Below are positions 14,343-52,551 of a stretch of DNA of 64,000 nucleotides, in pieces. The first letter of the stretch is position 1. Each line of letters opens with the position of its first letter. Under the pieces are notes generated by a model. That model did not search any database. It had not been told where the DNA came from and was given only the letters and a program-made list of their open reading frames with translations. Origin of the DNA: Escherichia phage vB_EcoM_phAPEC6; sequence record MK817115.1; one strand, given 5' to 3'. Made by a program: the position numbers and the translations under genes.

Positions 14343-14350
14343 TATTTATA
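14343..14350 (-). promoter_or_regulatory. T4-type late promoter TATAAATA for capsid gene
   Basis: Exact box ~45 nt upstream of ATG; the 16-mer AGTATGATATTATTTA around it recurs at 17110-17125. Confidence 0.6.
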
Positions 14351-15551: not shown

Positions 15552-15559
15552 TATTTATA
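15552..15559 (-). promoter_or_regulatory. T4-type late promoter TATAAATA for scaffold gene, overlapping a 9-bp inverted repeat
   Basis: Exact box; inverted repeat atatctgta / tacagatat at 15529-15554. Confidence 0.5.
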
Positions 15560-21509: not shown

Positions 21510-21517
21510 TATAAATA
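21510..21517 (+). promoter_or_regulatory. T4-type late promoter TATAAATA for the 21552 gene
   Basis: Exact box ~35 nt upstream of ATG, in a divergent intergenic region. Confidence 0.5.
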
Positions 21518-23395: not shown

Positions 23396-23403
23396 TATAA
23401 ATA
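23396..23403 (+). promoter_or_regulatory. T4-type late promoter TATAAATA for endonuclease VII gene
   Basis: Exact box ~30 nt upstream of ATG 23434. Confidence 0.5.
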
Positions 23404-28045: not shown

Positions 28046-28053
28046 TATAAATA
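28046..28053 (+). promoter_or_regulatory. T4-type late promoter TATAAATA for baseplate operon
   Basis: Exact box 35 nt upstream of ATG 28089, with GGAG RBS between. Confidence 0.5.
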
Positions 28054-34084: not shown

Positions 34085-34092
34085 TATAAATA
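34085..34092 (+). promoter_or_regulatory. T4-type late promoter TATAAATA for free lysozyme gene
   Basis: Exact box 17 nt upstream of ATG 34109. Confidence 0.45.
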
Positions 34093-38602: not shown

Positions 38603-38650
38603 ATATCATAAATAAATCAAATGAATGAACGAATTATATGGAGTCCAAAA

Positions 38651-41600
38651 ATGACTAATAATTTTAAGTTTCAACCTACACAGATGGCTGAAGCAGTACA
38701 GAAGAAGCTTTTTATTAAAAGATTGCCTGAGTGGATGCAAGGCTTAGAAGATATTCAAAAAGTCAGTGATGATGTTATTCAACAATGGTTTAATCCGGCT
38801 GAAAACGAATTAGTTGACGGCTATATTGGTGATATGGGTTCTCCTGCCGCTGCTGGTAATATCTTCTTACATGAAAGTACTGTAGCACGTCAACTTTATC
38901 AGTTGTCCACTGCTTACGTCTCAAAAAATGATGATTCGACAATTCGTTCAATTCAATTTTATGATGATCTAGTTGGATACATGAATCATTATGGAGCACT
39001 AACCGATAATGAAAGCCGTTTGTTCAACGGTAAGTTTTATGCATGGACTCCAGCTATTAACCCAAATAAAATGAACAATTTTAGCTCATATCTTTGGGAT
39101 ACTAAAAACTCTTATAATATTACTTCACCTGATTACATTGTAATGGAACGTGGAGCACTTAATGGTAATACATGGTCACTACAAAACTTTTGGTATACTT
39201 TAGGTGAAACATTAGAAGATGGCTCAATATTAACTGAAGAATTAATGCAAGATTCACGTTTTATTCGTGCACGTGCACCAATTATTGAATATAATAAAAA
39301 TATTGAGCTAATTAACTACGGTACAAAATTCCGTGGAACTGTTGATCTGTTCTCTGATATTATTAAACCTGAAGATATCGTTCAAAAAGATATTAATAGT
39401 GGTATACGTATTGATGGTATTATTCCGCAAGATGGAATGCGTATTCTATTCACCAGTATTGGTAACAATGGTGAAAACAATAGAATTTATAATGTATATG
39501 TGAAAAAAATGCAAGATGGTACTCGTGTTTATGGTTTAGCACTAGATCCAGAAGAAGAAACCGAATCACGCCCAAGTGGTGAACCTCAAGATGGTGATGT
39601 TGTTCTAATCACTAAAGGTAATGAGTATGGTAATAGTTCTATGTACTGGAATGGATCTTTGTGGGTTCGTGCACAATCAAAAACTAGTGTTAACGTATTC
39701 CCTAAATTCCAACTTTATGATCGTAATGGTATCAAACTTGACAACAGTACTACATATCCATCAAGTAACTTTAAAGGTTCAGAGTTGTTTGGTTTTAAAA
39801 TAAATTACAACTATGCAACTGATAGTGTATATGGATATAACATTGAACTTGGTGATTATAATTATTACATTTATGAAAACTTTTTACAATCCCAACGTTA
39901 TACCTATGACCATCTTGGAAAAGAAGTTGAAATTGATGGTTTATACTATTATAACATTATTGATGAAAATAATGAAATGAATCTTCAAACCGATTGGGTT
40001 CGTTCAGAAGAGTACTCTAAACAATTTGTAAAACAAACTCCACAAGTCCAACGTACTGATATGTATCGTGTATTCAGTACTGTTTATGATATGGAAGTTT
40101 TTAAAGAACCAGTTGATGGTATGTATGCATATGTTATTGAAGTTGATAGAACATATCAGTACTATAAAGCTGACCGTGAAACTTATCTAGATTGGCATCC
40201 AATTACTGGTGATGGTGTTCAGATTGTAAAATATGACCATACATTCGAATTGGCACAAAAAGTTTTAGATAATGATTCTGATATTATTGAAGTTGTGGTT
40301 GATGGTGTTGATGTGTCCAAATATACCAAAAATGTTTCAAAAGGTCAAGTACAAAGCATCACTCTAGATAGTACTGTAGAATTGGATGAAGATTCTGTTA
40401 TTCAAATTAGAACTTATAGCAGTACTGTAACTCCTAATAAAGAATTAGGTGCATATGAAGTTCCAATCAACCTACAAAATAACCCATATAATTCTAATAT
40501 TATATACATTAACCAAGGTGACTACACTTTACATTTTCAGGATATTATTCAAAAGAACATTACACGTGGTTCTTCTGATGATTTCAATGACTATGAAGAA
40601 CGTTTGGCTAAAGGATTGGTTAATAATGGCGTAGGTACTAAAATTATCCAAAATGAAGCATCTATGCTTCCATTGATGGCACATACTGCAAATGAAGATA
40701 TTGATTTGTTTGAAGCAACTATGTTTATGCAATCTGAATATTTTAGATTCATTAATAAATTTAATACACAAATGCTTCGTATGTATGATGAAAATCCATC
40801 AGACTTTTTACAAAATAGTGCTGCAAACATTGTTGATGCAATTTTAACTACTATTAATATGGGACGTGATAGTTCATTCCCATTCTATTATGATAATGTT
40901 GGAAGTACTTCTGGATTCATTCGTGCATTTATACCACCAACACCACAGTTCTTAGGTATTCTTCAAGCATATGTACCAGAAAAAGCGACATTCCTCACTG
41001 CTGGTAGTAAACCAAGCTGTTATAACATCAGTCATACTGGTATTATTTCCAAAGCATACCGTGTTATCAATGGTGTTGATAAAATGGATGATGTTGTATA
41101 TGAATTAGAAAATAGAATTTTTAATAGTATTGATAATAAATTCAAAGATGTTGATTACGTACCAGTATTGAATAGTGATGACCTTTTCCCTACACCATAT
41201 TTCACTAAAACTGAATATAGTGCTGAAGAGAAACAAACATTATTACTACGTGGATACATTAACTTCACCGCAACTAATGGTATCAGTAATAGTACACATG
41301 ATTATGATCCTAACAATTGGAGAACTTGGAACTATACTGGCACTTATTATGTAGTTAATGGTCAAAGTACTGAAATTCCTGCACGTGGTTCATGGCGTGC
41401 CATTTACACTGACCAATATGGTACATATCGCCCAGCTACCCATCCGTGGGAAATGTTTGGCTTTACACAACGTCCAACTTGGTGGAACCAAGAATACGAA
41501 CCAACGGCTGTTCAAGTTGGTGAACGTGATAGTGATGTTGTATATGTATATGAAGCACTTGTTATGAATGAGCAAGGTGATTTAGTTCCTAGTGGTCTTT

Positions 41601-44600
41601 GGGATATTGACGGAACTATTGGAGATAGCAGTACTGGAACTATTTTATTTGGTGATCGTCGTGGTCAATATGACAAATATAAAAGATTTGGTGTACAGCC
41701 ATTCAAAATTACAAAAACTGGAAATAAAACATCTTCTGGTATTGATATTTGTGTGGTTGAATATATTGCACCTGAAATTTTAGGTTTAGTGTCTGGATCT
41801 TTAAATCATAGAGCAGAACCTTGGACATATGGTGATATGGGTGACATGGAATTTACATACATGAACACTACATTGTTTGCATATGACCAAATGATGCTTT
41901 TGTATAAAGCTAAACCAGCACAATTTGCTAACTATTTCTGGGATACCCGCAACGATAACTTAAAAGAAGTATTCACTGATGGTTCACAATTCCTTTATGG
42001 TGATACACGTAAGCGTATTAATTTTGATAAAAATACAGTAGTTCATGGTGAAAATAGCACAAGAACAATTGGTTATCAAATGTTTGTAAGTGACCATTTG
42101 ATGTATCAAAATAAAAATATTACCACCAAGTATGGGGATGTAGTTCGTTCTTCTTATATAAATGTTGGTCATAAAATTGGAGGATTTACTAAAGCAGATC
42201 AGCTAACATTCAATGCTAAATCTTTCGGTCTTATTTCACAAGAAAACCAAACCATTGGTCTTGTTCGTTCTAATAATATCCGTGATGAGCAAATGAGTGC
42301 GATCAAAATTACTTGGAATGGTAGTGCATATCAGATTGATGGATATGATCTAGTTGGTGCTAAATTTAAATATAAACTTCCAGTAAAAAATGGTAGAAAA
42401 GTAACTCTTAAATTGGAAAACCGTAATGTTGTTCATTATAATGAATGGAAGTCTGAAGCTTCAATTGAATATGGTAAAGTTTTCAATAGTTACCAAGAAG
42501 TTTATACTTTTATTTGTGGATATGGTGAATATCTTAAAGAACATGGTTGGATTTTTGAAGATGTAAATGATAGTGGTGCTCAACAAGATTGGAACACTAT
42601 TGCTAAAGATTTCGTGATCTGGAGTCAGAATTCTCTAGTAACTGGTGAATTTATTTCTTGTACCCCAAGTGCTGCAAACGCTAAATTTGGGGCAGACTTT
42701 GGTTCAGTACAATCTATTACGCAAAATAATGGTGGTGTATGGTCATTACTTGATGATAATAACCAAGGTATTCGCCAATATGAAATTGAAACTTCTCGTA
42801 TTGGAAATATCTTCACTGTTAGAACTTTAGAATCTAATAAACGCATTGCATTGATTCGTTTAAGTTTGTGTTCATATGAACATGCTGTTATTTTTGATGA
42901 TAAAACTATTTTTGGTGATTACATTTATCAGCCAACATATGGTTCTATTCAAGAACTAATTAAAATGTATGGATATATTACTGGTTCATGGACTGGTCGC
43001 CTACAAGCTCCTGGATTTATTATCTTGGAAGCTGGAACACTACCATCATTTGAAAAATTAGTGTCGGATTTCCAACATTATTATGATAGTGAAACTCCAG
43101 TAAGTGATGTACAATTACAAGAGTTGTCAAACCATTTGATTGGTTATCAATCTCGTGATTATCTACAGCGTATGATTAGTAGTGATGTTAGTCGTGTTGA
43201 TTTCTATAAAGGATTCATTCACGATAAAGGTACTAACCAAGTTTTAGAACGTGTACTTCGTGTTTCTAAATCATATGACACTGATGAATATAAAGCATTA
43301 CAAGAATGGGCATTTAAAATTGGTACATATGGTAATATTGATGGTAAGAAAAACCTTCAATTTAAACTAATCAATGACCAATTTAAACAACAACCTCAAA
43401 TGGTTTCTTTTGATGTAAATGCAACTTCAAATGGTAATGGTAATCATATTGTATACTTCGGTGAGCAAGGTAAAGATCCTCGTTGGATTACACGTCCAAA
43501 TGGTAAGTTCTCATTCCCAATGCGTAGTGGAAGAAGTGAAAACATCCAACTTCCAGATATTGGTCCAGTAACATTGGATGAAGTATCGTACACAACAAAA
43601 GATTTCAGTACTGCATATAATGACCGCATAACTTATACTAATGGTAAAGGTGAAAATCCTGAATCTGTGTGGATGTTTAAAGACGGTAATGGTTTGTGGA
43701 ACATTTTTGAATTGGTTGATACTAATGTACAAATGGTTTCTATAACACCTATTGAAAATACCGATGTGTATGCTGAACAATTTTGTAAAGTAACTTTAAC
43801 TGATAATGTACCACTTGAAGATGGTGATTATTATTATTTTGTTGATGAAACTAACTTTATGCCAGATACTTTAACAGTAGAAAGTCAATATTATACTGCT
43901 GGTTCTGATCCTAAAGTTATGGTAGTTCCATTTGACACTTCTATTGATATTGAATTTACTGATCCAGATACACGTCCACGTTTGTATCGTTATGTATCAC
44001 GTTTTGCCAGTACTGATGAACGTCAAGCTTACATTGACAAGAAATATAGTTTTAAAGCACCACAAAGTACTTTATTTGATCGTCCAACGACATATGATGA
44101 ACGTACTAACATTACTGAGCTATATCTAAACGTTTATGACCCAATTAATGGTGTTATTCCAGGTGCGGCTATGCAAAACGTAACATATACTTCACCAGTT
44201 GATCCTGCACAGTATAATAGTAATGGAGAGTTAATCCAGGCTTGGGGTGCTGATAAAGTTGGTCAAGTATGGTGGAACACTAGCACTGCATTTTATTTGG
44301 ATTATACTCGTGCAATTTATGACGCAGACGGTAATGTTGATATTGATGCAACCAATGAATACAAACGTTACAACTGGGGCCGTTTGTTACCACATAGTAC
44401 CATTGATGTGTTAGAGTGGGTTTGTTCACCAGTTGAGCCATATAACTGGGACAAATACTGTAAAGATGTTGCTAAGAAAAACAAAAATAATACTATGTAT
44501 CTACCAAGTGGAACTGCACTTGAAGATAATTATAGTACATTTTTGGAATATGATAGTTCAACTGATAGTTATGTAACAAAATACTATTTCTGGGTACGTG

Positions 44601-47600
44601 ATACAATTTATGTACCACCACTACATACCAGAACGAAATCATGTACTGACATTGCTCGTATTATTAAAGATCCAACACAGCTAAACATTCCTTGGTTCGC
44701 TCCAATAAATGAAAACTCGTTTATTCTTAGTAATATGCAATTTAAAGTGAATGATGATACCAGTATTTTAACTGTTTCTTATTACATGGATAGTACTGAA
44801 GTTGTTAAACATGACCAGTATCAACTATGTAAAGAAGGTGACAGCTATAACTTTAACCCACTAATTTGGGATTCAATGTGGAACTCACTAATTGGTCAAG
44901 AAACAACTGAATCAGGTTCTGTGATTAATTTATTATATCCAGATGTTGATAACGGTTTAGGATCAAACAAAACTTGGTTCCAAAATGTTATAGAAGCTCG
45001 TAGAAACTTTGTAGAAAGTGCTAATAATTATTATAGGTCACAAAACATAACCACTAATAGTGTTGTTATGGAAGATGTGTTTAATGTTAAAACCACTGAA
45101 GTTAACCCTAATGAAGTTTCTTTCCGTGTATTGTCTTACAATAATGAATTAGTTATTGCAGTTGAAAGTGATAAATTTAAAGAAAATGACGCTGTTATTT
45201 TAAGTACTAGTGGATATCTACCAAATCCATTAACTTCTAGTGCTGTTTATTTTATTCACTTCGACGAAAATGGATATATTCAGTTAATGAATAGTCCAGC
45301 AAACGCGGGTAGTGTTGTTACTATAACGTTAGAGAACAAAGGTGAGGGACAACATAAAATGATTAAACAATCTGATTATGTTGAATCACTAGGAACTTCA
45401 TTAGACATGACTCAGTACTGGTCATATGCTGATTGGTATGATGTTGGATATGATAGTAACACGACTTATACTCAAGAGTCAAGCTTAGAAGATGCTAATA
45501 CTAAAAACTACCAAGTTGGCGATATTATCAGAGTTACCGATAGTGAAAACATTTGGACATTGTATATTAAATCACAATCACGCGATTCAATTTATTGGAA
45601 AGCGATTGGTCGTGAAAACAGTACAGTTGAACTCAATGATATGCTTTACGCAGATTATAGTGTTCATAATGATAATGGTTCACTAAGCAATCGTGAAATC
45701 AACGTTCGTAAAGCACTAGCTTTACTCAAAAATTCTTTCGATTTACATCAAAGCGAAATTGTTTTTGATATGGTCAAATATGTACATGTTGAACAAAGTG
45801 TTGTGGATTGGGTATTTAAAACATCATATATCTATATTGTTGGTTTGGAACAATCATTAGTTCAAAACTATTCAAACGATAATTTGATTAATCAAATTGT
45901 TGAATATTTTGAAGAAGTTAAACCTTATAGAACTAAAATTCGTTCACAAATAGAGCAAAAGACATCTGATGATGATTTAATAAAAGGTCTATGTAATGAT
46001 TTAGATCCTAATGGATATATTTTCGTTGATGGTTCTTGGATCAAAACTGAAAAAGATATTTGGGATTATGAGTACGCTCAATTTAATGAAATTACCCAAA
46101 AATGGGAACAGGTAGGTTCACTACCAAGTGATTTCGTTACACCAAATAGAAGATTCCAAGAAATTGATATTATTATGCATTATGATAATATTCAGTGTAA
46201 ACCAAATGAAGATTTGGCAAGCATAAATGAATTAGTAAGTGTTAATAACAAATATCAATCCAATGAAAAGGATGCTGTTAGTAACTATGAATTACAACGT
46301 TATATATATTCTTTCCCAGAATATAGTGAAGAAACTTTCGATCTTCTTATTGCTTATCAAATGCAAATCTACTATCCAGAATTGGATGTAACACTAGGAA
46401 CAGCATATGGCGTTAACCAGTGGTATAAAGACCATGCGGAAGATTTAGAAGCAACTGATGAATTCACTGCTACATTGGAACGTGTTTATAAAGAATCAAC
46501 GCATAACGATATGTTTACTGACCTTAGACAATATGTTCAGTATAACACATTGGCAAACCGTTTGAAACTTTATAAAGATATAAGTGATGAGAAAATTCAC
46601 GATGAAGTTGGATGTGGATTTAGTGGACTTACTTATAATGACAATCCTAGTACTAGACTTCCATTAGGCTTTTCTTCTAGTAATGATTATAACTATGGAT
46701 ATTTTGAAATAAGCAGTGAATTGTATCAAAAATACATTTCATTAATTAAAGATAAAAATCCTGACGCATCAGACTATGAAGTAAAAGTTAAACTTGAAGT
46801 TGAGTATGGTGTATATGTTTATCGTTATGATGAAGTAGGTGGTGATACCCGTTTCTATACTGATGCTATTCACGTATTAGCAGGTATGAGAGGGTTATTC
46901 GACAAAGACGCTACTGATAAGTACGAAAAAGCTGAAGAGATTCTTAGTAAGACCCCAATTGATATCTATGCAATTACAATGATTCCACGAAAATATGTTT
47001 ACTTAAATGTTAACGGTGTATATCAAAGTATACCTGATGAACAAAGTATTGATGATTTCATGGAAGATTATTTTATCACAAATGGTGAAATGGTTGAACT
47101 AGCTGAAATAAATCTTGATGATTTACCACTAGATCAAAATAATCCAATGTATTCTGATTATCAATATATACTTGATAGTATTACTGAAGCTAAGTACTTC
47201 AATGATATGAATGCATTTGATAACCTAGCATTGGAATCTCAAACTTCTTCAATAAAATGGGAAGTTAAAGATGATGAAGTTGATCCTTATATTGTGGATA
47301 TATCTGACATAAACCCTTCTGGGCGTGATGTAGGTCAAATTAGATTTACAGTTGATGGATATGGGTTTGACAATGTATCTCTTGTACAATTACGTGATAA
47401 CAGCAGATATCAAACTGAAGGTATGGCAATTATCAATCCATATAAACATACAGAAGCAATTGTAAGTATTCCTTCATATGCTAAGATTGAAAATGATATT
47501 AATAAAACAACATCGAAGTTTGATGAAAAATATTTCTATCGTGTGAGATCTATTAATAGCTTAACTGAAGCAGAAATAGTTGACAATGACCTATCTGATG

Positions 47601-48622
47601 GTGATAAGGTGATGATTTTCACTCCTGATGGTGAAGATTTTGTGAGATATCAAAATCACACATGGGAAACAATCTTGCGTGTATCTAACATCAAAAACAA
47701 TACAACTCCGATCCTATTCACTGTAAGAAATACAGGTAAGGAAACGATTGAATTGATTGATGAGAGTACTGGTGCAGTTCTCCGTTATGATAACATCACT
47801 CTTGCACAACAAAATGAGCCAGTACAGCCTCTAGCATTGAACATTGTTCGTGTTAGAACATTTGCTGACCCTGAATTTGTCAAGAATGGTATTAAATTGT
47901 ATGAACAAAATAGAAATTACACCATTGATGTAATTAATTATGATGTTTTCTACGATACTACTTTAAATGGTGGTAAGTACAATGACGGAATAACACCAGA
48001 TGACGTTGACGTTTGGATAATCTCCAATGAAATATTTGATGTTGATGGAATTACTATCGATAACGGTTATAACTTACCAATTACGGGTGCGGGAGTTCTT
48101 AGTGAATTGGCAAGAACTAAAATGACTGATAGTTTAGAAATCAACGTTATCGAATATGATTCAAGTGTTATTCAACCGTTTAGAAATAATGAAGGGATAT
48201 GGGTTTATGGATTCCCAATGGTTGACGGTATGTATATCGGTGTTGTTGGTGGTACTGTTACTAACATCACAACCATTAGTGAAGAAAATACAACCTATGT
48301 TTCTCAACCTAAATCAATAAGTCCTTATAGTATTAGAAATAATGTTTTATCCGGTTCAGCCGCGAACATGAATGATATTATATCGATTGGATATGAAAAA
48401 GTTGAAGTTAGAAATGCAAATAATTTACTCCGTGGTGTAATGTATAGTGCAGAACATGATTTTAAACTTAATACCACATATTCTTTCAATGGAATTAATT
48501 TAGGTAATTATGATATGTTAAAACGTTACACACAAAATAGTTACACTATAGATCTTTCAGTATACACTGATAGTCTACAAGTTAGTGGTAATGATATTAA
48601 AAATATATTATTAGTTAAGTAA
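38651..48622 (+). CDS. Giant structural protein (~3323-3333 aa), probable baseplate/tail component
   Basis: Uninterrupted ~10 kb frame; GGAG RBS before ATG 38651 (ORF track starts at 38621); follows gp25/gp6-like genes; Asn/Tyr/Thr/Gly-rich with no obvious long internal repeats. Confidence 0.55.
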   Translation: MTNNFKFQPTQMAEAVQKKLFIKRLPEWMQGLEDIQKVSDDVIQQWFNPAENELVDGYIGDMGSPAAAGNIFLHESTVARQLYQLSTAYVSKNDDSTIRSIQFYDDLVGYMNHYGALTDNESRLFNGKFYAWTPAINPNKMNNFSSYLWDTKNSYNITSPDYIVMERGALNGNTWSLQNFWYTLGETLEDGSILTEELMQDSRFIRARAPIIEYNKNIELINYGTKFRGTVDLFSDIIKPEDIVQKDINSGIRIDGIIPQDGMRILFTSIGNNGENNRIYNVYVKKMQDGTRVYGLALDPEEETESRPSGEPQDGDVVLITKGNEYGNSSMYWNGSLWVRAQSKTSVNVFPKFQLYDRNGIKLDNSTTYPSSNFKGSELFGFKINYNYATDSVYGYNIELGDYNYYIYENFLQSQRYTYDHLGKEVEIDGLYYYNIIDENNEMNLQTDWVRSEEYSKQFVKQTPQVQRTDMYRVFSTVYDMEVFKEPVDGMYAYVIEVDRTYQYYKADRETYLDWHPITGDGVQIVKYDHTFELAQKVLDNDSDIIEVVVDGVDVSKYTKNVSKGQVQSITLDSTVELDEDSVIQIRTYSSTVTPNKELGAYEVPINLQNNPYNSNIIYINQGDYTLHFQDIIQKNITRGSSDDFNDYEERLAKGLVNNGVGTKIIQNEASMLPLMAHTANEDIDLFEATMFMQSEYFRFINKFNTQMLRMYDENPSDFLQNSAANIVDAILTTINMGRDSSFPFYYDNVGSTSGFIRAFIPPTPQFLGILQAYVPEKATFLTAGSKPSCYNISHTGIISKAYRVINGVDKMDDVVYELENRIFNSIDNKFKDVDYVPVLNSDDLFPTPYFTKTEYSAEEKQTLLLRGYINFTATNGISNSTHDYDPNNWRTWNYTGTYYVVNGQSTEIPARGSWRAIYTDQYGTYRPATHPWEMFGFTQRPTWWNQEYEPTAVQVGERDSDVVYVYEALVMNEQGDLVPSGLWDIDGTIGDSSTGTILFGDRRGQYDKYKRFGVQPFKITKTGNKTSSGIDICVVEYIAPEILGLVSGSLNHRAEPWTYGDMGDMEFTYMNTTLFAYDQMMLLYKAKPAQFANYFWDTRNDNLKEVFTDGSQFLYGDTRKRINFDKNTVVHGENSTRTIGYQMFVSDHLMYQNKNITTKYGDVVRSSYINVGHKIGGFTKADQLTFNAKSFGLISQENQTIGLVRSNNIRDEQMSAIKITWNGSAYQIDGYDLVGAKFKYKLPVKNGRKVTLKLENRNVVHYNEWKSEASIEYGKVFNSYQEVYTFICGYGEYLKEHGWIFEDVNDSGAQQDWNTIAKDFVIWSQNSLVTGEFISCTPSAANAKFGADFGSVQSITQNNGGVWSLLDDNNQGIRQYEIETSRIGNIFTVRTLESNKRIALIRLSLCSYEHAVIFDDKTIFGDYIYQPTYGSIQELIKMYGYITGSWTGRLQAPGFIILEAGTLPSFEKLVSDFQHYYDSETPVSDVQLQELSNHLIGYQSRDYLQRMISSDVSRVDFYKGFIHDKGTNQVLERVLRVSKSYDTDEYKALQEWAFKIGTYGNIDGKKNLQFKLINDQFKQQPQMVSFDVNATSNGNGNHIVYFGEQGKDPRWITRPNGKFSFPMRSGRSENIQLPDIGPVTLDEVSYTTKDFSTAYNDRITYTNGKGENPESVWMFKDGNGLWNIFELVDTNVQMVSITPIENTDVYAEQFCKVTLTDNVPLEDGDYYYFVDETNFMPDTLTVESQYYTAGSDPKVMVVPFDTSIDIEFTDPDTRPRLYRYVSRFASTDERQAYIDKKYSFKAPQSTLFDRPTTYDERTNITELYLNVYDPINGVIPGAAMQNVTYTSPVDPAQYNSNGELIQAWGADKVGQVWWNTSTAFYLDYTRAIYDADGNVDIDATNEYKRYNWGRLLPHSTIDVLEWVCSPVEPYNWDKYCKDVAKKNKNNTMYLPSGTALEDNYSTFLEYDSSTDSYVTKYYFWVRDTIYVPPLHTRTKSCTDIARIIKDPTQLNIPWFAPINENSFILSNMQFKVNDDTSILTVSYYMDSTEVVKHDQYQLCKEGDSYNFNPLIWDSMWNSLIGQETTESGSVINLLYPDVDNGLGSNKTWFQNVIEARRNFVESANNYYRSQNITTNSVVMEDVFNVKTTEVNPNEVSFRVLSYNNELVIAVESDKFKENDAVILSTSGYLPNPLTSSAVYFIHFDENGYIQLMNSPANAGSVVTITLENKGEGQHKMIKQSDYVESLGTSLDMTQYWSYADWYDVGYDSNTTYTQESSLEDANTKNYQVGDIIRVTDSENIWTLYIKSQSRDSIYWKAIGRENSTVELNDMLYADYSVHNDNGSLSNREINVRKALALLKNSFDLHQSEIVFDMVKYVHVEQSVVDWVFKTSYIYIVGLEQSLVQNYSNDNLINQIVEYFEEVKPYRTKIRSQIEQKTSDDDLIKGLCNDLDPNGYIFVDGSWIKTEKDIWDYEYAQFNEITQKWEQVGSLPSDFVTPNRRFQEIDIIMHYDNIQCKPNEDLASINELVSVNNKYQSNEKDAVSNYELQRYIYSFPEYSEETFDLLIAYQMQIYYPELDVTLGTAYGVNQWYKDHAEDLEATDEFTATLERVYKESTHNDMFTDLRQYVQYNTLANRLKLYKDISDEKIHDEVGCGFSGLTYNDNPSTRLPLGFSSSNDYNYGYFEISSELYQKYISLIKDKNPDASDYEVKVKLEVEYGVYVYRYDEVGGDTRFYTDAIHVLAGMRGLFDKDATDKYEKAEEILSKTPIDIYAITMIPRKYVYLNVNGVYQSIPDEQSIDDFMEDYFITNGEMVELAEINLDDLPLDQNNPMYSDYQYILDSITEAKYFNDMNAFDNLALESQTSSIKWEVKDDEVDPYIVDISDINPSGRDVGQIRFTVDGYGFDNVSLVQLRDNSRYQTEGMAIINPYKHTEAIVSIPSYAKIENDINKTTSKFDEKYFYRVRSINSLTEAEIVDNDLSDGDKVMIFTPDGEDFVRYQNHTWETILRVSNIKNNTTPILFTVRNTGKETIELIDESTGAVLRYDNITLAQQNEPVQPLALNIVRVRTFADPEFVKNGIKLYEQNRNYTIDVINYDVFYDTTLNGGKYNDGITPDDVDVWIISNEIFDVDGITIDNGYNLPITGAGVLSELARTKMTDSLEINVIEYDSSVIQPFRNNEGIWVYGFPMVDGMYIGVVGGTVTNITTISEENTTYVSQPKSISPYSIRNNVLSGSAANMNDIISIGYEKVEVRNANNLLRGVMYSAEHDFKLNTTYSFNGINLGNYDMLKRYTQNSYTIDLSVYTDSLQVSGNDIKNILLVK

Positions 48623-48624
48623 TA

Positions 48625-48660
48625 AAAAAGGAGAGCATAATGCTCTCCTTTTCTTTTTTT
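48625..48660. terminator. Bidirectional terminator (ggagagca-taa-tgctctcc), same stem as at 2905
   Basis: A-run upstream, long T-run downstream; between convergent giant gene and ClpA-like gene. Confidence 0.7.
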
Positions 48661-50947
48661 ATACTAGTGCTTTATCTACAGCTTTGGTACGTTTCGGCTT
48701 AATACCGATTTTACCATCAATAACATCAAATGTAATGTTACCACCATTCACAAGTGAACCACACAACATTTCTTTAGCTAGTGGTACACGAATGTTTTGT
48801 TCAATGGTACGTTTCATTGGACGTGCACCCATACCAACTTTTACCCCATTTTTCGCAAGCCATTCACGTGCAGCTTTTGTCAATGTAACTTTAACATTAC
48901 GGTCTTTGACTTGTTCATTCAAACCACCCATGAACTTATCAATGATGCTGTCAATAGCTTCACTGCTTAGGTCTTTAAACGTAACGATACTATCAATACG
49001 GTTAATAAACTCTGGTGGCAAGAATGCTTTAATTGCCTTGTCCTGTGCAGTGTCACTACCGCTCATACCAATGCTACGCTTTGTTGAATCAGCCGCACCA
49101 AGGTTTGTAGTCATAATAACAGTTACGTTATTAAAATATACAGTTTTACCTTGAGAACCAGTCAGACGACCTTCATCCAAAACCTGTAGGAAGGTTAGTA
49201 GTACTTTACGATCTGCTTTTTCAATTTCATCAAGTAACAGTACTGCATTAGGGAACTGCTCAATTTTATCCAACAGTAAACCGTTACCAGAATCATGACC
49301 AACATAACCTGGAGGTGAACCAATTAGTTTAGAAACAGTATGTTCTTGAGAAAATTCTGACATATCAAAGCGAATGAGTTCCGCACCAGTTGCGTCTGCT
49401 AATGCTTTGGTAATTTCTGTTTTACCAGTACCAGATGGTCCAACAAACATAAATGCACCCTGAACACTAGATTTGTCACGCAGTCCTGCACGAGCTACCA
49501 TCACGTTATCAACTAATTTTTGAATAGCTTCCTCTTGACCGTATACACGTGAGCGTAGTGCATCTGGTAGATTACGCATACGATCACTTTCAGTACATGC
49601 AACCACGTTGATATCCAAATTGGCAATACCAGCAACAACTTCTTGAATCAAATTGGCAGTAATAAGCTTACTATTGTTGTCACGTGAACGAACTTTAGCC
49701 GCAGCAGCATCCATTAGATCAATTGCTTTATCTGGGAAGTGCTTATTCTTCAGGAATTTATCACTGAGAGAAATTACAGCATCCATTGCATCAGATGTGA
49801 ACTCAACATTATGGAATTTTTCATACGTTGGTTTCAAACCATTAACAATTGCACGAGTTTCATCAATTGTCGGCTCAACTACGTCAATTTTCATAAAACG
49901 ACGAGTTAATGCACTATCTTTCTCGATATTTTTACGATATTCATCATATGTTGTTGCACCAATTACACGAATCTCACCACGTGAAAGTGCTGGCTTAAGC
50001 ATATTGCTCATGTCCATAGAACCATTACTTGCGGAACCAGCCCCAACCATAATATGAATTTCATCAATGAAAACAATAGTATTTTCACGTTTCTTTAGTT
50101 CTTTTAGCAAATTGTCGATGCGTTCTTCAAATTCACCACGATACTTAGTACCAGCAGTCAATGCACCAACATTTAGTGAAAGAATTTCAACGTCTTTTAG
50201 GTGTTCAGGTACGTTACCATCAGCAATAGCTTGTGCAAGCCCGTCGATGATTTGTGTTTTACCTACACCAGCTTCACCAGTGAGAATAGCATTCTTTTTG
50301 GTTTTGCGAGCAAGAGTCTCAATCAATGCAGACAATTCTTTCTGGCGACCAATCATAGGATCTAGTTTGCCTTCTTTTGCAAGAGCAGTTAGATTCGTTG
50401 TATAGTCTTCCAAACCTTTTTGTTTAGATGATTGCTGCTGTTGGGCCACTTTTTTATCTCCAATCGGTTCGTCATTAATACTTTGTAAGTTGATACCCTT
50501 ATCAAGTGACTCAACGTGTTTCTGTAATGCACGTGCAGCTTCAGTACAGCTAACACCTTCTTCTTTTAACGCAGCTTCTAGTGCTGTGTTAGGGAAAGAC
50601 AGACATTCGAATAGAACAAAATATGCATCAATCGAAAAATCATCACTTTTTAGTTGTTCAATAACTGATTTTTTAGAAAGCTCATGTACAACGCGATTCA
50701 CTAGAAGTGAAGTTCGATTCGCGTCTTCATCTTTAACACTTTTTGGTGCATGTGGAACTGTTGTATTTTTAAGATAGTTCATCAGGCGGTTGTGCAGTTT
50801 GTCTGCATCAATGTTCATATCTTCAAATACGTTCTTGATGCTATCAATAGTCAGTACTGTGGCACTTACGTGGTCAATAGTCAAGAATGTATGACCTAGA
50901 GATGTTGCCAGTTCGTCGCTTTTTTTGAACAATTGAGTAAGATTCAT
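48659..50947 (-). CDS. ClpA-like Hsp100 AAA+ unfoldase with two nucleotide-binding domains
   Basis: D1 Walker [10 protein letters not shown] and Walker B VFIDEIH; D2 Walker [10 protein letters not shown] and Walker [10 protein letters not shown]; KRSIGMSG parallels the ClpA IGL ClpP-docking loop as recalled; ORF-track start is GTG, ATG 50945-50947 has AGGAGA RBS. Confidence 0.8.
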
Positions 50948-51057
50948 GTATTCTCCTATGTGATTCACGTCACTCTAATTAATAAACATTATATCACATT
51001 CTTACGGTTTGTCTACAAGGTAAATAAAGATATACCCGATTTATTTTGGAGACAATC

Positions 51058-52551
51058 ATGACATATAGAATGTGGAAAAAAGGTAGAACCAATGATTACA
51101 AGTTCATTGATTCTGCCATTGCTGAACAATACAACATTGGTGGAGTTGACATGTGGCTTTATGCATATGTCGGTCCAAAACAAGTTGCTGACAACACTGA
51201 CTTATCCTATGGAGGTGATTATACATCTTCAGGATCAGTTGTGTCAAGTATTGGCGATTTAATTTTTGGTGACACACCAAACAGAAACTACAACCTTGAA
51301 GCTATCACACTTAGTTGTGTCTATCAAGTTCAAGAAGCAACTCCAGACTTGAAAATCCCAGGATTGTTCTTTAATTTCAACACTATGGACATCACAATCC
51401 ATTATAATACAATGATGCAGCGTTTAGGTAGAAAAATCATGCCAGGGGATGTGATAGAACTACCAAATTTACGTGATTTTGATGTATTGGGTAAAGATAC
51501 AGGTCTAAACCGCTTCTATGTCGTCCAAGATGCATTTCGTACATCTGAGGGATACTCGGTTACGTGGCAACATCACATTTATAAACTTAGAGTTAAACCG
51601 CTAACCGACTCACCTGAGTACTCCGATTTACTCGGTAACAATAATTATCCTGATAATCCAGATGACCCTAATAATGGTAATGGAAATACCGATGATGGTT
51701 CGTCGGAAAACAGTAACTATGGCAATGAAATGGATATCATGAACCGTATCATCATGCAAGCTGATGATGAAGTACCCTATATTCATTATACAAATGAACA
51801 TTTGTATGATGATCGACCTGATACAGTAGATTTATCAAAATATATGCTTAACGGTTATGATTTTCCAGAAGAACCTGCCGATGGAATGTATTTTTTGAAA
51901 AAAACATACCCAGTACTCAAAGAGTTTGTTAATGATACATGGATTTCTGTGGAAGTCAAGCGTGGAACCATCTTTCCCAGAAAACCAATGGATGGTGACT
52001 TCTTCTTTAAAGAAAATGACGCAGATGTGACAGGTTATACGTTGTATCAATATGATAAAAGTGCTAAAAAATGGTTAAATTGTGATGTAGAATATACTAC
52101 CAGTGATGTTCCACCAGAAGATGTGGAAGATTTTTGTATTTTTTATAAAGAACCACACATTTATCAGTATAATGATGACAAGTGGGGGGAACCAAAGGTA
52201 ACTTATGTCAATGAACCATTCACGTCCAATTGTGTATATGGTAATATTGATTCGCAACAAGATTATCGTCCTAAAATTCCACCAGCACGAGGTACAGTCC
52301 CTGAAGGAAATATGTTCCCAACTGATGCAGTAGATGGTGACTATTTCTATCGCACCGATTATACTCCAGTTACGTTATGGGAATTCAATGCAACTAAGAA
52401 TTCATGGGTTATTTTTGATTATGGTGGAAGAAAACCGTGGGAAGGTGCAGACTTAGCACTTACACAGTTTGTAAATAGTGATAACAAAGTTCCATTACAT
52501 GACGCAGTTAAACCTAATACTGTTTATCGCATACATAAGGACACAGAATGA
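51058..52551 (+). CDS. Hypothetical virion protein
   Basis: ORF-track start 51046 is TTG; ATG 51058 has GGAG RBS. Confidence 0.45.
   Translation: MTYRMWKKGRTNDYKFIDSAIAEQYNIGGVDMWLYAYVGPKQVADNTDLSYGGDYTSSGSVVSSIGDLIFGDTPNRNYNLEAITLSCVYQVQEATPDLKIPGLFFNFNTMDITIHYNTMMQRLGRKIMPGDVIELPNLRDFDVLGKDTGLNRFYVVQDAFRTSEGYSVTWQHHIYKLRVKPLTDSPEYSDLLGNNNYPDNPDDPNNGNGNTDDGSSENSNYGNEMDIMNRIIMQADDEVPYIHYTNEHLYDDRPDTVDLSKYMLNGYDFPEEPADGMYFLKKTYPVLKEFVNDTWISVEVKRGTIFPRKPMDGDFFFKENDADVTGYTLYQYDKSAKKWLNCDVEYTTSDVPPEDVEDFCIFYKEPHIYQYNDDKWGEPKVTYVNEPFTSNCVYGNIDSQQDYRPKIPPARGTVPEGNMFPTDAVDGDYFYRTDYTPVTLWEFNATKNSWVIFDYGGRKPWEGADLALTQFVNSDNKVPLHDAVKPNTVYRIHKDTE

Follow-up and report, generated by a model that had tools for sequence, protein, structure and literature searches.

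A phage-encoded ClpA-type double-ring AAA+ ATPase in Escherichia phage vB_EcoM_phAPEC6 and its likely phage-encoded partners

Why should a bacteriophage carry a protein unfoldase of its own, with which peptidase, if any, would it work, and does it have anything to do with the giant virion protein encoded beside it? These questions are raised by a clpA-like gene of Escherichia phage vB_EcoM_phAPEC6 (sequence record MK817115.1) that lies within the 64,000-nucleotide stretch of DNA analyzed here (the window). The ORF list for this 64-kb window gives a mechanical reading frame at 48659..50968 (minus strand) that opens with GTG and encodes 769 aa. Taking the ATG at 50947 as the start, which direct reading of the sequence shows to be preceded at a distance of 5 nt by a Shine-Dalgarno AGGAG (50953..50957, minus strand), gives a coding sequence at 48659..50947 (minus strand) of 2289 nt, or 762 aa plus a stop codon at 48659-48661; this assignment, based on the ORF, the ATG with its AGGAG and homology, agrees with the CDS that GenBank gives for all annotated relatives. 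At the DNA level the gene is 100% identical to clpA of Escherichia phage vB_Eco_slurp01 (Asteriusvirus PBECO4), and 49 phage records were matched by megablast. The gene is therefore already known: it is annotated as clpA in GenBank and named in two papers (Attai 2018, PMC6102473; Iyer 2021, PMC7824862), which state the presence and conservation of ClpA in Rak2-like jumbo phages and nothing beyond that. A literature search on phage-encoded ClpA found no biochemical or genetic work for any phage ClpA.

The original prediction of a ClpA-like double-ring ATPase is borne out by the Pfam domains and by a collinear match to E. coli ClpA (43% identity, E 2e-180), in which a single alignment stretch places phage residues 17-741 on ClpA residues 20-734. 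PHROG 4871, a family of phage 'ATP-dependent proteases' that are ClpA-like, is matched with 1035 bits (E = 0; residues 2-756 on profile positions 11-761 of 764), and ClpA is also the best-scoring NCBIfam model for the 762-aa protein. Although these E-values exclude a chance match to ClpA, the NCBIfam equivalog cut-offs are missed (TIGR02639, 754.7 vs 993.15 bits; PRK11034, 654.6 vs 1350), so that the protein belongs to a divergent ClpA-like lineage and is not an equivalog by NCBI's threshold.

The domain anatomy is that of ClpA throughout, and all of the following features lie on the minus strand. The helical, Clp_N-type N-domain (residues 1-145, 50513..50947) was delimited by Pfam, the ClpA alignment and an AF2 model, in which it consists of eight helices. 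Its first Clp_N repeat is detected by Pfam at residues 11-59 (24.5 bits vs a cut-off of 20.7); the second escapes Pfam, yet the region still aligns with the ClpA N-domain, an alignment that begins at residue 17, and is predicted to be all-helical. Sequence identity in this domain stands at 45% inside the distant phage clade and falls to ~22% against E. coli ClpA. The D1 AAA+ module (residues 181-440, 49628..50407; Pfam AAA, matching residues 221-341, and AAA_lid_9, with the motif map) contains, when mapped on E. coli ClpA, the Walker A motif GEAGVGKT (residues 224-231, 50255-50278), the pore loop KYRG (residues 268-271, 50135-50146) and the Walker B motif FIDE (residues 293-296, 50060-50071). 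The D2 module with its D2-small domain (residues 441-745, 48713..49627; Pfam and motif map) is matched by Pfam AAA_2 at residues 497-654 (E 2e-49) and by ClpB_D2-small (E 9e-22), and the same mapping locates its Walker A motif GPSGTGKT (residues 503-510, 49418-49441), pore loop GYVG (residues 547-550, 49298-49309), Walker B motif LLLDEIE (residues 570-576, 49220-49240) and sensor-2 GARP (residues 707-710, 48818-48829). Arginine fingers RR349-350 and R650 and sensor-1 N615 are likewise aligned on their E. coli ClpA counterparts. Both Walker A/B pairs are thus present, as had been claimed, and alignment against ClpA located the N-domain, the IG(L/M) loop and the sensors, with no essential ATPase residue lost. 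D1 and D2 are not separated by a coiled-coil middle domain, as is evident from the one collinear stretch with ClpA, and ClpA protomers taken from ClpAP complexes can be superposed on the AF2 model (for 6w20_A, TM 0.90, rmsd 3.1 A). From its sequence, the protein is confirmed as a phage-borne ClpA-type double-ring AAA+ ATPase with intact motifs.

The element that would couple such an ATPase to a peptidase is less conventional. The IGM tripeptide (residues 626-628, 49064..49072, minus strand) was assigned to the ClpP-docking loop by alignment on ClpA I617-G618-L619: in HMMER, BLASTP and MAFFT alignments alike, 'KRSIGMSGS' falls column for column on ClpA 'RKSIGLIHQ', and the earlier claim that KRSIGMSG sits where ClpA carries its IGL loop therefore stands. 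In the AF2 model IGM is found within an exposed loop of low pLDDT (residues 624-629), and low confidence here is to be expected of a flexible docking element. The loop is nevertheless non-canonical, with M in place of L/F and with S629 where ClpA has its fourth hydrophobic residue, I620. In E. coli ClpA, residues I620, H621 and Q622 flank the IGL and contact ClpP (bioRxiv 10.1101/820209); the corresponding phage residues are S, G and S. No functional motif is less conserved across the phage clade than the docking tripeptide, which has the variants IGA, IGG, MSM and MNM, and although the position is occupied by a hydrophobic-G-hydrophobic arrangement in most members, this variability suggests that tight coupling to ClpP may not be kept everywhere.

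Candidate partners are encoded elsewhere in the same phage genomes. Outside the window, PBECO4 gp105 is a ClpP-family peptidase (Pfam CLP_protease, E 4e-41; annotated as clpP in slurp01) that is 36% identical to E. coli ClpP and keeps the Ser-His-Asp triad (S113/H139/D188 on S97/H122/D171); it is distinct from gp520, a T4 gp21-like prohead protease. The pocket that receives the IGL loop is altered in the phage ClpPs, with L114G in all six of the Rak2-like proteins compared, Y60 replaced by T, S or V, and a variable position 82 (F82S/N/C/Y); they also share a conserved C-terminal extension of ~20 aa. With seven phage ClpA/ClpP pairs, the sample was too small to establish whether the docking tripeptide co-varies with pocket position 82. 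A second candidate, gp457, also outside the window, is a ClpS-domain protein (Pfam ClpS at residues 74-144, 24.7 bits vs a cut-off of 23) with an N-terminal extension of ~70 aa. It surfaced solely through its RefSeq product name and Pfam: tblastn with E. coli ClpS gave no Asteriusvirus match, either in the sequence collection (E < 0.01) or locally (E < 10). In one pairwise alignment with ClpS it shows N34D, D36P, M40A and H66N, of which the last three would replace residues canonical for the N-degron pocket; the region around H66 is uncertainly aligned. No Pfam match at E < 1e-3 was obtained for three further PBECO4 products, the 'HslV-family peptidase' gp096, the 'protease' gp097 and the 'Hsp70' gp015. 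The three Clp-like genes are dispersed in the genome and form no operon, but they travel together: ClpA (at least 60% identity) was found in 70 phage records, the ClpP-like protein (at least 60%) in 69 and the ClpS-like protein in 71, a ratio near 1:1:1, with the records listed from the same Rak2-like phages. Since the phage has its own ClpP-family and ClpS-domain genes, a phage ClpA/ClpP/ClpS set is more parsimonious than a hijacked host ClpP, and these genes make it most likely that ClpA acts together with the ClpP-like peptidase and ClpS-like adaptor that the phage itself encodes.

What, then, of the giant gene next door? The original title called the two genes divergent, which is wrong; its accompanying text correctly had them convergent, and clpA and the gene for the 3333-aa virion protein indeed meet 3' end to 3' end. 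Between them, stem, U-runs and folding energy define a hairpin terminator at 48626..48652 with a 12 bp stem and a folding energy of -16.9 kcal/mol (z -5.2; none of 200 shuffles was as stable), and U-runs on both strands give it the shape of a bidirectional intrinsic terminator. The tail-to-tail order and the hairpin recur in RaK2 and CBB, and so in three genera including Asteriusvirus. To this extent the proposal of a shared terminator that hints at a functional link holds, but the link itself is unsupported in view of the clpA promoters, the absence of ClpA from virions and the gene's context in Pseudomonas phage PA5oct; convergent genes simply need a terminator, and one that they share may reflect nothing more. 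The tail protein encoded beside clpA in PA5oct has no similarity to the 3333-aa giant (best E 1.1).

The promoters were located by a consensus scan, and both are sigma70-type and on the minus strand: a proximal one, TAGACA-16-TGaTATAAT (50988..51015), matches 11 of 12 consensus positions and has an extended -10, and a distal one, TTGACA-18-TATAAT (51218..51247), matches 12 of 12 and lies within the neighboring plus-strand gene. An equivalent promoter is kept 5' of clpA in RaK2 (TTGACA-17-TGaTATAAT) and in CBB (TGTGCTATAAT), and the architecture T(A/G)GACA-16-GTGATATAAT is common to clpA and the clpP-like gene. Sigma70-type sites of at least 11/12 number 117 in the phage genome vs ~24 in shuffles, a ~5-fold excess, and 105 of the 117 are on the minus strand, which is that of the non-structural genes. 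T4-type late motifs (TATAAATA), on the other hand, are found ahead of the neighboring structural genes and not of clpA; as the window holds seven copies vs 10.8 expected, they are not enriched, and only their positions relative to gene starts are informative. In the phAPEC6 virion proteome the flanking baseplate wedge and the 381.9-kDa giant are present and ClpA is missing, the table going from gp245 to gp248. The PA5oct ClpA carries no ESI-MS/MS flag, and of the Clp proteins the text of the CBB paper has the ClpP-like protein only. On the published virion proteomes, ClpA is not a virion component. The main text of the PA5oct paper, consulted for transcript timing, makes no mention of Clp genes.

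The proteins of this clade fall into 114 clusters at the 90% identity level, with scores dropping from 847 to 654 bits between them and the next homologues. The phAPEC6 protein is 100% identical to those of slurp01, 121Q and SHEFM2K, 75% to that of RaK2 and 63% to that of CBB. Among 113 clade representatives of 54-93% identity, the arginine fingers, sensors and Walker B motifs are essentially invariant (arginine fingers in 113/113, Walker B FIDE in 112/113), and KYRG is kept in 101/113. We read this motif conservation as indicating that the clade is probably under purifying selection. It bears directly on whether clpA might be a moron newly acquired from a host, or a degenerating passenger that does nothing for the phage. 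In favor of this, the clpA stretch has a slightly higher GC content (0.36-0.37) than the genes around it (0.32-0.34). Host ClpA, however, is just 43% identical, the phage proteins form the separate clade described above, position, promoter and terminator are kept in three genera, and catalytic residues are invariant across the clade. The conservation data effectively refute this reading, which we consider highly improbable.

Taken together, it is probable that the gene encodes a functional ClpA-type Hsp100/AAA+ unfoldase whose likeliest partners are the phage's own ClpP-family peptidase and a candidate ClpS-domain adaptor. By homology to E. coli ClpA, the protein would assemble into a two-tiered hexamer, its helical N-domain would bind substrates or adaptors, and its IGM loops would dock on a ClpP heptamer by inserting into its hydrophobic pockets, so delivering unfolded chains for degradation. 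The peptidase would most plausibly be gp105, and gp457 is the candidate adaptor. The set appears to have been inherited vertically in the Rak2-like jumbo phages. Transcription would be by host sigma70 RNA polymerase from the gene's own strong promoters, with a timing suggested by motifs alone, and clpA would form an opposite-strand island within a late baseplate/tail module. Its biological substrates might be host proteins or phage assembly intermediates.

Two other roles have to be weighed against this one. It is possible, if rather unlikely, that phage ClpA docks on host ClpP and redirects host proteolysis, either replacing host ClpA/ClpX or adding a substrate specificity. IGM is chemically close to the E. 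coli IGL and occupies the same loop, and the predicted sigma70 promoters would mean expression while host ClpP is abundant; the replacement of the E. coli ClpP-contacting residues by S, G and S speaks against such docking, however, as does a catalytically intact ClpP-family gene in the phage, found in nearly the same number of records as clpA. The original suggestion that the protein redirects host ClpP is accordingly weakened by the ClpP-family peptidase and ClpS-domain protein that this phage has of its own, although the use of host and phage ClpP would not be mutually exclusive. We consider it unlikely that the protein serves, independently of ClpP, as a chaperone or unfoldase dedicated to assembling the neighboring giant baseplate protein or fibers, with the tail-to-tail placement reflecting that link. 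E. coli ClpA has chaperone activity without ClpP, as in the remodeling of RepA, and some phage subclades have a relaxed docking tripeptide. The order of baseplate wedge, ~10-kb virion gene and convergent clpA is kept in Asteriusvirus, Alcyoneusvirus (RaK2) and Mimasvirus (CBB) and persists at just ~60-75% ClpA identity, and in PA5oct clpA lies just upstream of structural/tail genes, beside dnaJ. Yet gene order is conserved throughout the ~30-40 kb around clpA that were examined in slurp01, RaK2 and CBB, so that the adjacency of clpA and the giant gene is by itself of little weight, and the PA5oct neighbor is not homologous to the giant. The promoter motifs of clpA are sigma70-type rather than late-type, most of the clade keeps both a hydrophobic-G-hydrophobic loop and a ClpP-like gene that co-occurs with clpA, and nothing ties ClpA to the giant protein.

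It is tempting to speculate, unlikely as we judge it, that Rak2-like phages possess a private, host-orthogonal Clp protease with a re-tooled ClpS pocket, expressed from host-type promoters and selectively destroying host proteins (those of defense or stress, for instance) rather than serving in assembly. The notion of orthogonality has its bases in the IGM-S-G-S loop, the drifted tripeptides of sister lineages and the altered pocket and C-terminal extension of the phage ClpP.

As the correct re-identification of an annotated gene, the present analysis adds little, and the locus is mildly unusual solely in its relaxed docking tripeptide beside altered ClpP pockets. The clade does, however, offer a complete ClpA/ClpP/ClpS-like set in a culturable E. 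coli phage. Knowing which proteins are degraded, those of the host or assembly intermediates, would explain the investment of jumbo phages in regulated proteolysis of their own, and the phage set could give synthetic biology an unfoldase and a peptidase that work as an orthogonal pair.

Among known systems, ClpB/Hsp104 and ClpC have D1/D2 AAA+ cores homologous to the phage protein (E about 1e-150), but the matches to ClpB, ClpC, ClpV and ClpK/G are each split in two, for ClpB and ClpC around the middle domain that the phage protein lacks. To our knowledge ClpB has no ClpP-docking tripeptide, and a disaggregase of the ClpB/Hsp104 type is ruled out by the missing M-domain insertion, the split ClpB match and the tripeptide itself. 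E. coli ClpA (PDB 1KSF/1R6B, 6W1Z-6W24, 7UIV-7UJ0) has the same order of N-domain, D1, D2 and D2-small, with no middle domain, and the phage protein reproduces its Walker A/B motifs, pore loops (KYR and GYVG), sensors and arginine fingers either identically or with conservative replacements. The two differ in the docking loop, IGL-I-H-Q vs IGM-S-G-S, and in that phage ClpA is virus-encoded, with ClpP-like and ClpS-like partners of its own that are dispersed in the genome. Pseudomonas phage PA5oct and Agrobacterium phage Atu_ph07 also encode a ClpA-type architecture together with ClpP- and ClpS-like proteins, and the PA5oct ClpA has an IGF docking loop. It is, however, just 41% identical to that of phAPEC6, as distant as bacterial ClpA, and is encoded in a different, co-directional context that adjoins dnaJ; the ClpA of these two phages is possibly an independent acquisition. 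The closest counterparts are the other ClpAs of PHROG 4871 and the Rak2-like phages (121Q gp581, PBECO4 gp539, RaK2 ORF069 and those of CBB and GAP32), which are of the same family and lie at the same genomic position, and from which no feature sets phAPEC6 ClpA apart.

The gene at 48659-50947 (-) encodes what, judged by homology, is almost certainly an active ClpA-type unfoldase; it is a real gene, and the core annotation as a ClpA-like ATPase was right. The mechanical open reading frame (48659..50968, -) opens with a GTG and spans 769 aa, and the coding sequence starts at an ATG at 50947 with AGGAG upstream at 50957-50953 (-), giving a 762-aa product that agrees with the GenBank annotation. 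Pfam recognises AAA (D1), AAA_lid_9, AAA_2 (D2, E 2e-49) and ClpB_D2-small; the top NCBIfam model is ClpA TIGR02639 (754.7 bits, residues 3-740 on 5-732 of 734), a hit that stays under the curated equivalog threshold (993), and PHROG 4871, 'ATP-dependent protease', is matched from one end to the other (1035 bits). E. coli ClpA is the first phmmer match among PDB sequences (1KSF, E 2.4e-180; 43% identity by BLASTP) and its residues 20-734 align with 17-741 of the phage protein in a single collinear stretch, whereas the matches to ClpC, ClpB and Hsp104 are each split in two by a middle domain that phage ClpA lacks.

When the functional residues of E. coli ClpA were mapped onto the phage protein, all listed elements were intact: in D1, Walker A (residues 224-231, GEAGVGKT), the pore loop (268-271, KYRG), Walker B (293-296, FIDE) and the arginine fingers R349 and R350; in D2, Walker A (503-510, GPSGTGKT), the pore loop (547-550, GYVG), Walker B (570-576, LLLDEIE), sensor-1 (N615), the arginine finger R650 and sensor-2 (707-710, GARP). 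Both Walker pairs are kept as predicted, and the IGM tripeptide (residues 626-628; window 49064-49072, -) occupies exactly the column of I617-G618-L619, the ClpP-docking IGL of E. coli ClpA; neither a misplaced tripeptide nor lost ATPase residues, the outcomes proposed as a refutation, were seen in this mapping. The top Foldseek superpositions of an AlphaFold2 model (37-sequence alignment, mean pLDDT 79) are ClpA protomers in ClpAP cryo-EM structures (6w20_A, TM 0.90, rmsd 3.1 Å; 6uqe_A, TM 0.89). The weak-confidence parts of the model are the N-D1 linker (157-176), a D1 loop (303-310), the IGM loop (624-629) and the C-terminal tail (753-762).

A search of 5.8 billion proteins sets the phage ClpA lineage apart as 114 clusters (90% identity level) with scores of 847 bits or more and 54-93% identity to the query; contigs of 350-370 kb are the source of many. 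Below this group scores drop to 654 bits and 45% identity, and in the PDB search E. coli ClpA reached 604 bits. All 113 full-length members have the arginine fingers, sensor-1 and sensor-2 unchanged; 112 of them keep the Walker B FIDE and 103 GYVG. Distant clade members share 45% (N-domain), 67% (D1) and 72% (D2) identity with phage ClpA, compared with 22%, 51% and 46% for E. coli ClpA. The sequences thus point to an old gene, inherited vertically under purifying selection, and clade identity together with residue conservation rules out recent host capture. The gene had been sequenced and named before: a 'clpA' with 100% identical DNA is annotated in Escherichia phage vB_Eco_slurp01 (LT603033, Asteriusvirus PBECO4, 348 kb), and 19 other records, PBECO4, 121Q, Sharanji and SP27 among them, carry it with 99.7% identity or more under the names ClpA-like protein, ATP-dependent protease or hypothetical protein. 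Published work has remarked on ClpA and its conservation among Rak2-like jumbo phages (Attai et al., PMC6102473; Iyer et al., PMC7824862), and a full-text literature search found no experimental study of any phage ClpA or ClpP. Two ClpA genes are mis-annotated, as 'putative virion protein and lysozyme murein' in phage vB_EcoM_CRJP21 (GenBank OQ708376.1 166018-168306) and as 'porphyrin biosynthesis' in PA5oct (RefSeq NC_071039.1 gp186).

The original prediction also held that the phage ATPase might redirect host ClpP. The borrowing of host ClpP is weakened by clpP-like and clpS-like genes of the phage's own, which are present in the whole RefSeq record of the Asteriusvirus relative PBECO4 and lie outside the window. 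PBECO4 gp105 (231 aa; NC_027364.1 72185-72880, -) matches Pfam CLP_protease (E 4e-41), is 36% identical to E. coli ClpP and keeps the catalytic triad, its S113/H139/D188 aligning on S97/H122/D171, so that by sequence it is a true ClpP-family protein; its slurp01 counterpart (LT603033 156958-157650) is annotated clpP. RefSeq labels gp105 'head maturation protease', yet the T4 gp21-type prohead protease of PBECO4 is the separate gp520, which matches Peptidase_S77. Also in PBECO4, the products of 67372-67965 (-) and 68293-68901 (-) are called 'peptidase HslV family' and 'protease', names that rest on remote PHROG clustering only because neither has a Pfam match (E < 1e-3). The ClpS domain of gp457 (181 aa; NC_027364.1 249684-250229, -) is marginal (residues 74-144; Pfam 24.7 bits against a cut-off of 23), with extensions of ~70 aa at the N-terminus and ~35 aa at the C-terminus and an N-degron pocket that is partly replaced (D36P, M40A, possibly H66N); its counterpart is labelled 'Clp protease adaptor' in Sharanji and others. 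By tblastn, all three genes are spread through the Rak2-like phages, namely Asteriusvirus, RaK2/K64-1, CBB, GAP32, fHe-Yen9, Serratia BF, Erwinia pEa_SNUABM, Xanthomonas XbC2 and Salmonella Munch/7t3, in nearly equal numbers of records (ClpA 70 and ClpP-like 69, both at ≥60% identity; ClpS-like 71). The simplest reading of these sequences is a phage-encoded ClpA/ClpP/ClpS-like set rather than a lone ATPase dependent on host ClpP, and we lean towards the phage ClpP-like protein as the main partner of phage ClpA. The original observation and core annotation hold; of the functional ideas, some lose ground once the genome beyond the window is considered.

A functional link between clpA and the neighbouring 3333-aa giant gene (window 38621-48622, +) had been read into their shared terminator. 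The two are indeed convergent, the word 'divergent' in the heading of the prediction being a slip, and the intergenic hairpin (48626-48652, both strands; 12 bp, U-runs on each strand, dG -16.9 kcal/mol, z -5.2) has similar counterparts in RaK2 and CBB, where clpA likewise converges on the giant, in a kept order that runs from the baseplate wedge through these two to a divergent virion protein and the tail-sheath stabiliser. The conserved position is real but amounts simply to retained synteny, and any two convergent genes would need such a terminator. The giant, which follows a 1153-aa baseplate wedge subunit, matches PHROG 10938, a virion structural protein, over its full length and no other PHROG family at E < 1e-5; its phAPEC6 counterpart, gp245, is a 381.9-kDa virion protein with 17 peptides. 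ClpA is absent from the phAPEC6 virion list, which passes from gp245 to gp248; PA5oct ClpA carries no ESI-MS/MS flag whereas the PA5oct ClpP-like protein does, and the text of the CBB paper names only the ClpP-like protein, by a single peptide, and no ClpA. In the distant jumbo phage PA5oct, clpA is co-directional, next to dnaJ and then a tail protein unrelated to the giant; in Atu_ph07, another distant jumbo phage, it likewise adjoins dnaJ (gp292-293; PMC6102473). The PA5oct neighbourhood of clpA and the dnaJ-like co-chaperone gene is at 19284-22202 in L014 (PA5oct NC_071039.1), with an FtsH homologue nearby; the PBECO4 annotation shows no dnaJ.

The regulatory signals differ as well. Upstream of clpA lie a proximal sigma70-type promoter (51015-50988, -; TAGACA-16-TGaTATAAT, 11/12 with an extended -10) and, farther off, a perfect distal one (51247-51218, -; TTGACA-18-TATAAT); RaK2 (TTGACA-17-TGaTATAAT) and CBB (TGTGCTATAAT) have promoters in the same place within otherwise diverged spacers. 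The clpP-like promoter, TGGACA-16-GTGATATAAT, has the same architecture, and the ClpS-like gene directly follows an IF3-like gene with a 12/12 promoter. PBECO4 has 117 near-consensus sigma70-type sites at ≥11/12 against ~24 in shuffles, a ~5-fold excess; 105 are on the - strand, with a concentration at 125-225 kb, a region of small non-structural or hypothetical genes, and only two in the 275-325-kb structural block. By contrast, none of the seven TATAAATA motifs (T4 late-promoter type) in the window is upstream of clpA: six, at 14343-14350 (-), 15552-15559 (-), 21510-21517 (+), 23396-23403 (+), 28046-28053 (+) and 34085-34092 (+), stand 17-55 nt upstream of head, baseplate or tail-module genes in the right orientation, their placement alone being notable since their number shows no excess over chance. 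PBECO4 gp530 is a gp55-like 'sigma factor for late transcription'. Ten tandem paralogues annotated 'regulator of chromosome condensation' (RCC1-like) lie at NC_027364.1 157841-170100 (+), amid an otherwise - strand region. Host-type promoters suggest that clpA would act before, or in parallel with, late assembly, a timing more in line with a remodelled host or phage proteome than with a structural role. Phage ClpA may conceivably serve as a chaperone dedicated to the giant protein, but the proposed link is weakened by the differing signals, the absence of ClpA from virions and the PA5oct context, and no finding speaks positively for it.

By homology, six phage ClpA subunits would most likely assemble into a two-ring hexamer whose N-domains recruit substrates or the ClpS-like adaptor; the KYR and GYVG pore loops would then pull the polypeptide along the axial channel as ATP is hydrolysed in D1 and D2, and the chain would be degraded by a ClpP heptamer, probably that of the phage itself, whose pockets receive the IGM loops. 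Such novelty as is left lies in the idea that the phage Clp set might be host-orthogonal. The IGL pocket of E. coli ClpP comprises L23, L48, F49, A52, Y60, Y62, F82, I90, M92, F112, L114 and L189, with E26 and R192 also in the definition (Lopez et al., bioRxiv 10.1101/820209). In the ClpP-like proteins of six Rak2-like phages, L114 is replaced by Gly in 6/6, Y60 by T, S or V, F82 by S, Y, N or C, and A52 mostly by S (Y60T, F82S and L114G in gp105). These proteins also share a ~20-aa C-terminal extension (…NE.G.…VKRR.G…WV), which in gp105 ends ...VKRRGGVEEWV. The docking tripeptide, in turn, is the least conserved functional motif of clade ClpA (commonest forms: MGM 16, IGM 15, IGV 11, LGM 9, IGA 9, LGL 8, MSM 8, VGF 6, IGG 5, MNM 5); seven phage ClpA/ClpP pairs are too few for a co-variation test. 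The drift fits a co-adapted phage pair and, equally, relaxed coupling in some lineages. Where E. coli ClpA continues after its IGL with I620-H621-Q622, phage ClpA follows IGM with S-G-S, and the pocket changes and tripeptide variation together indicate drift away from the E. coli pair in both partners of the putative interface.
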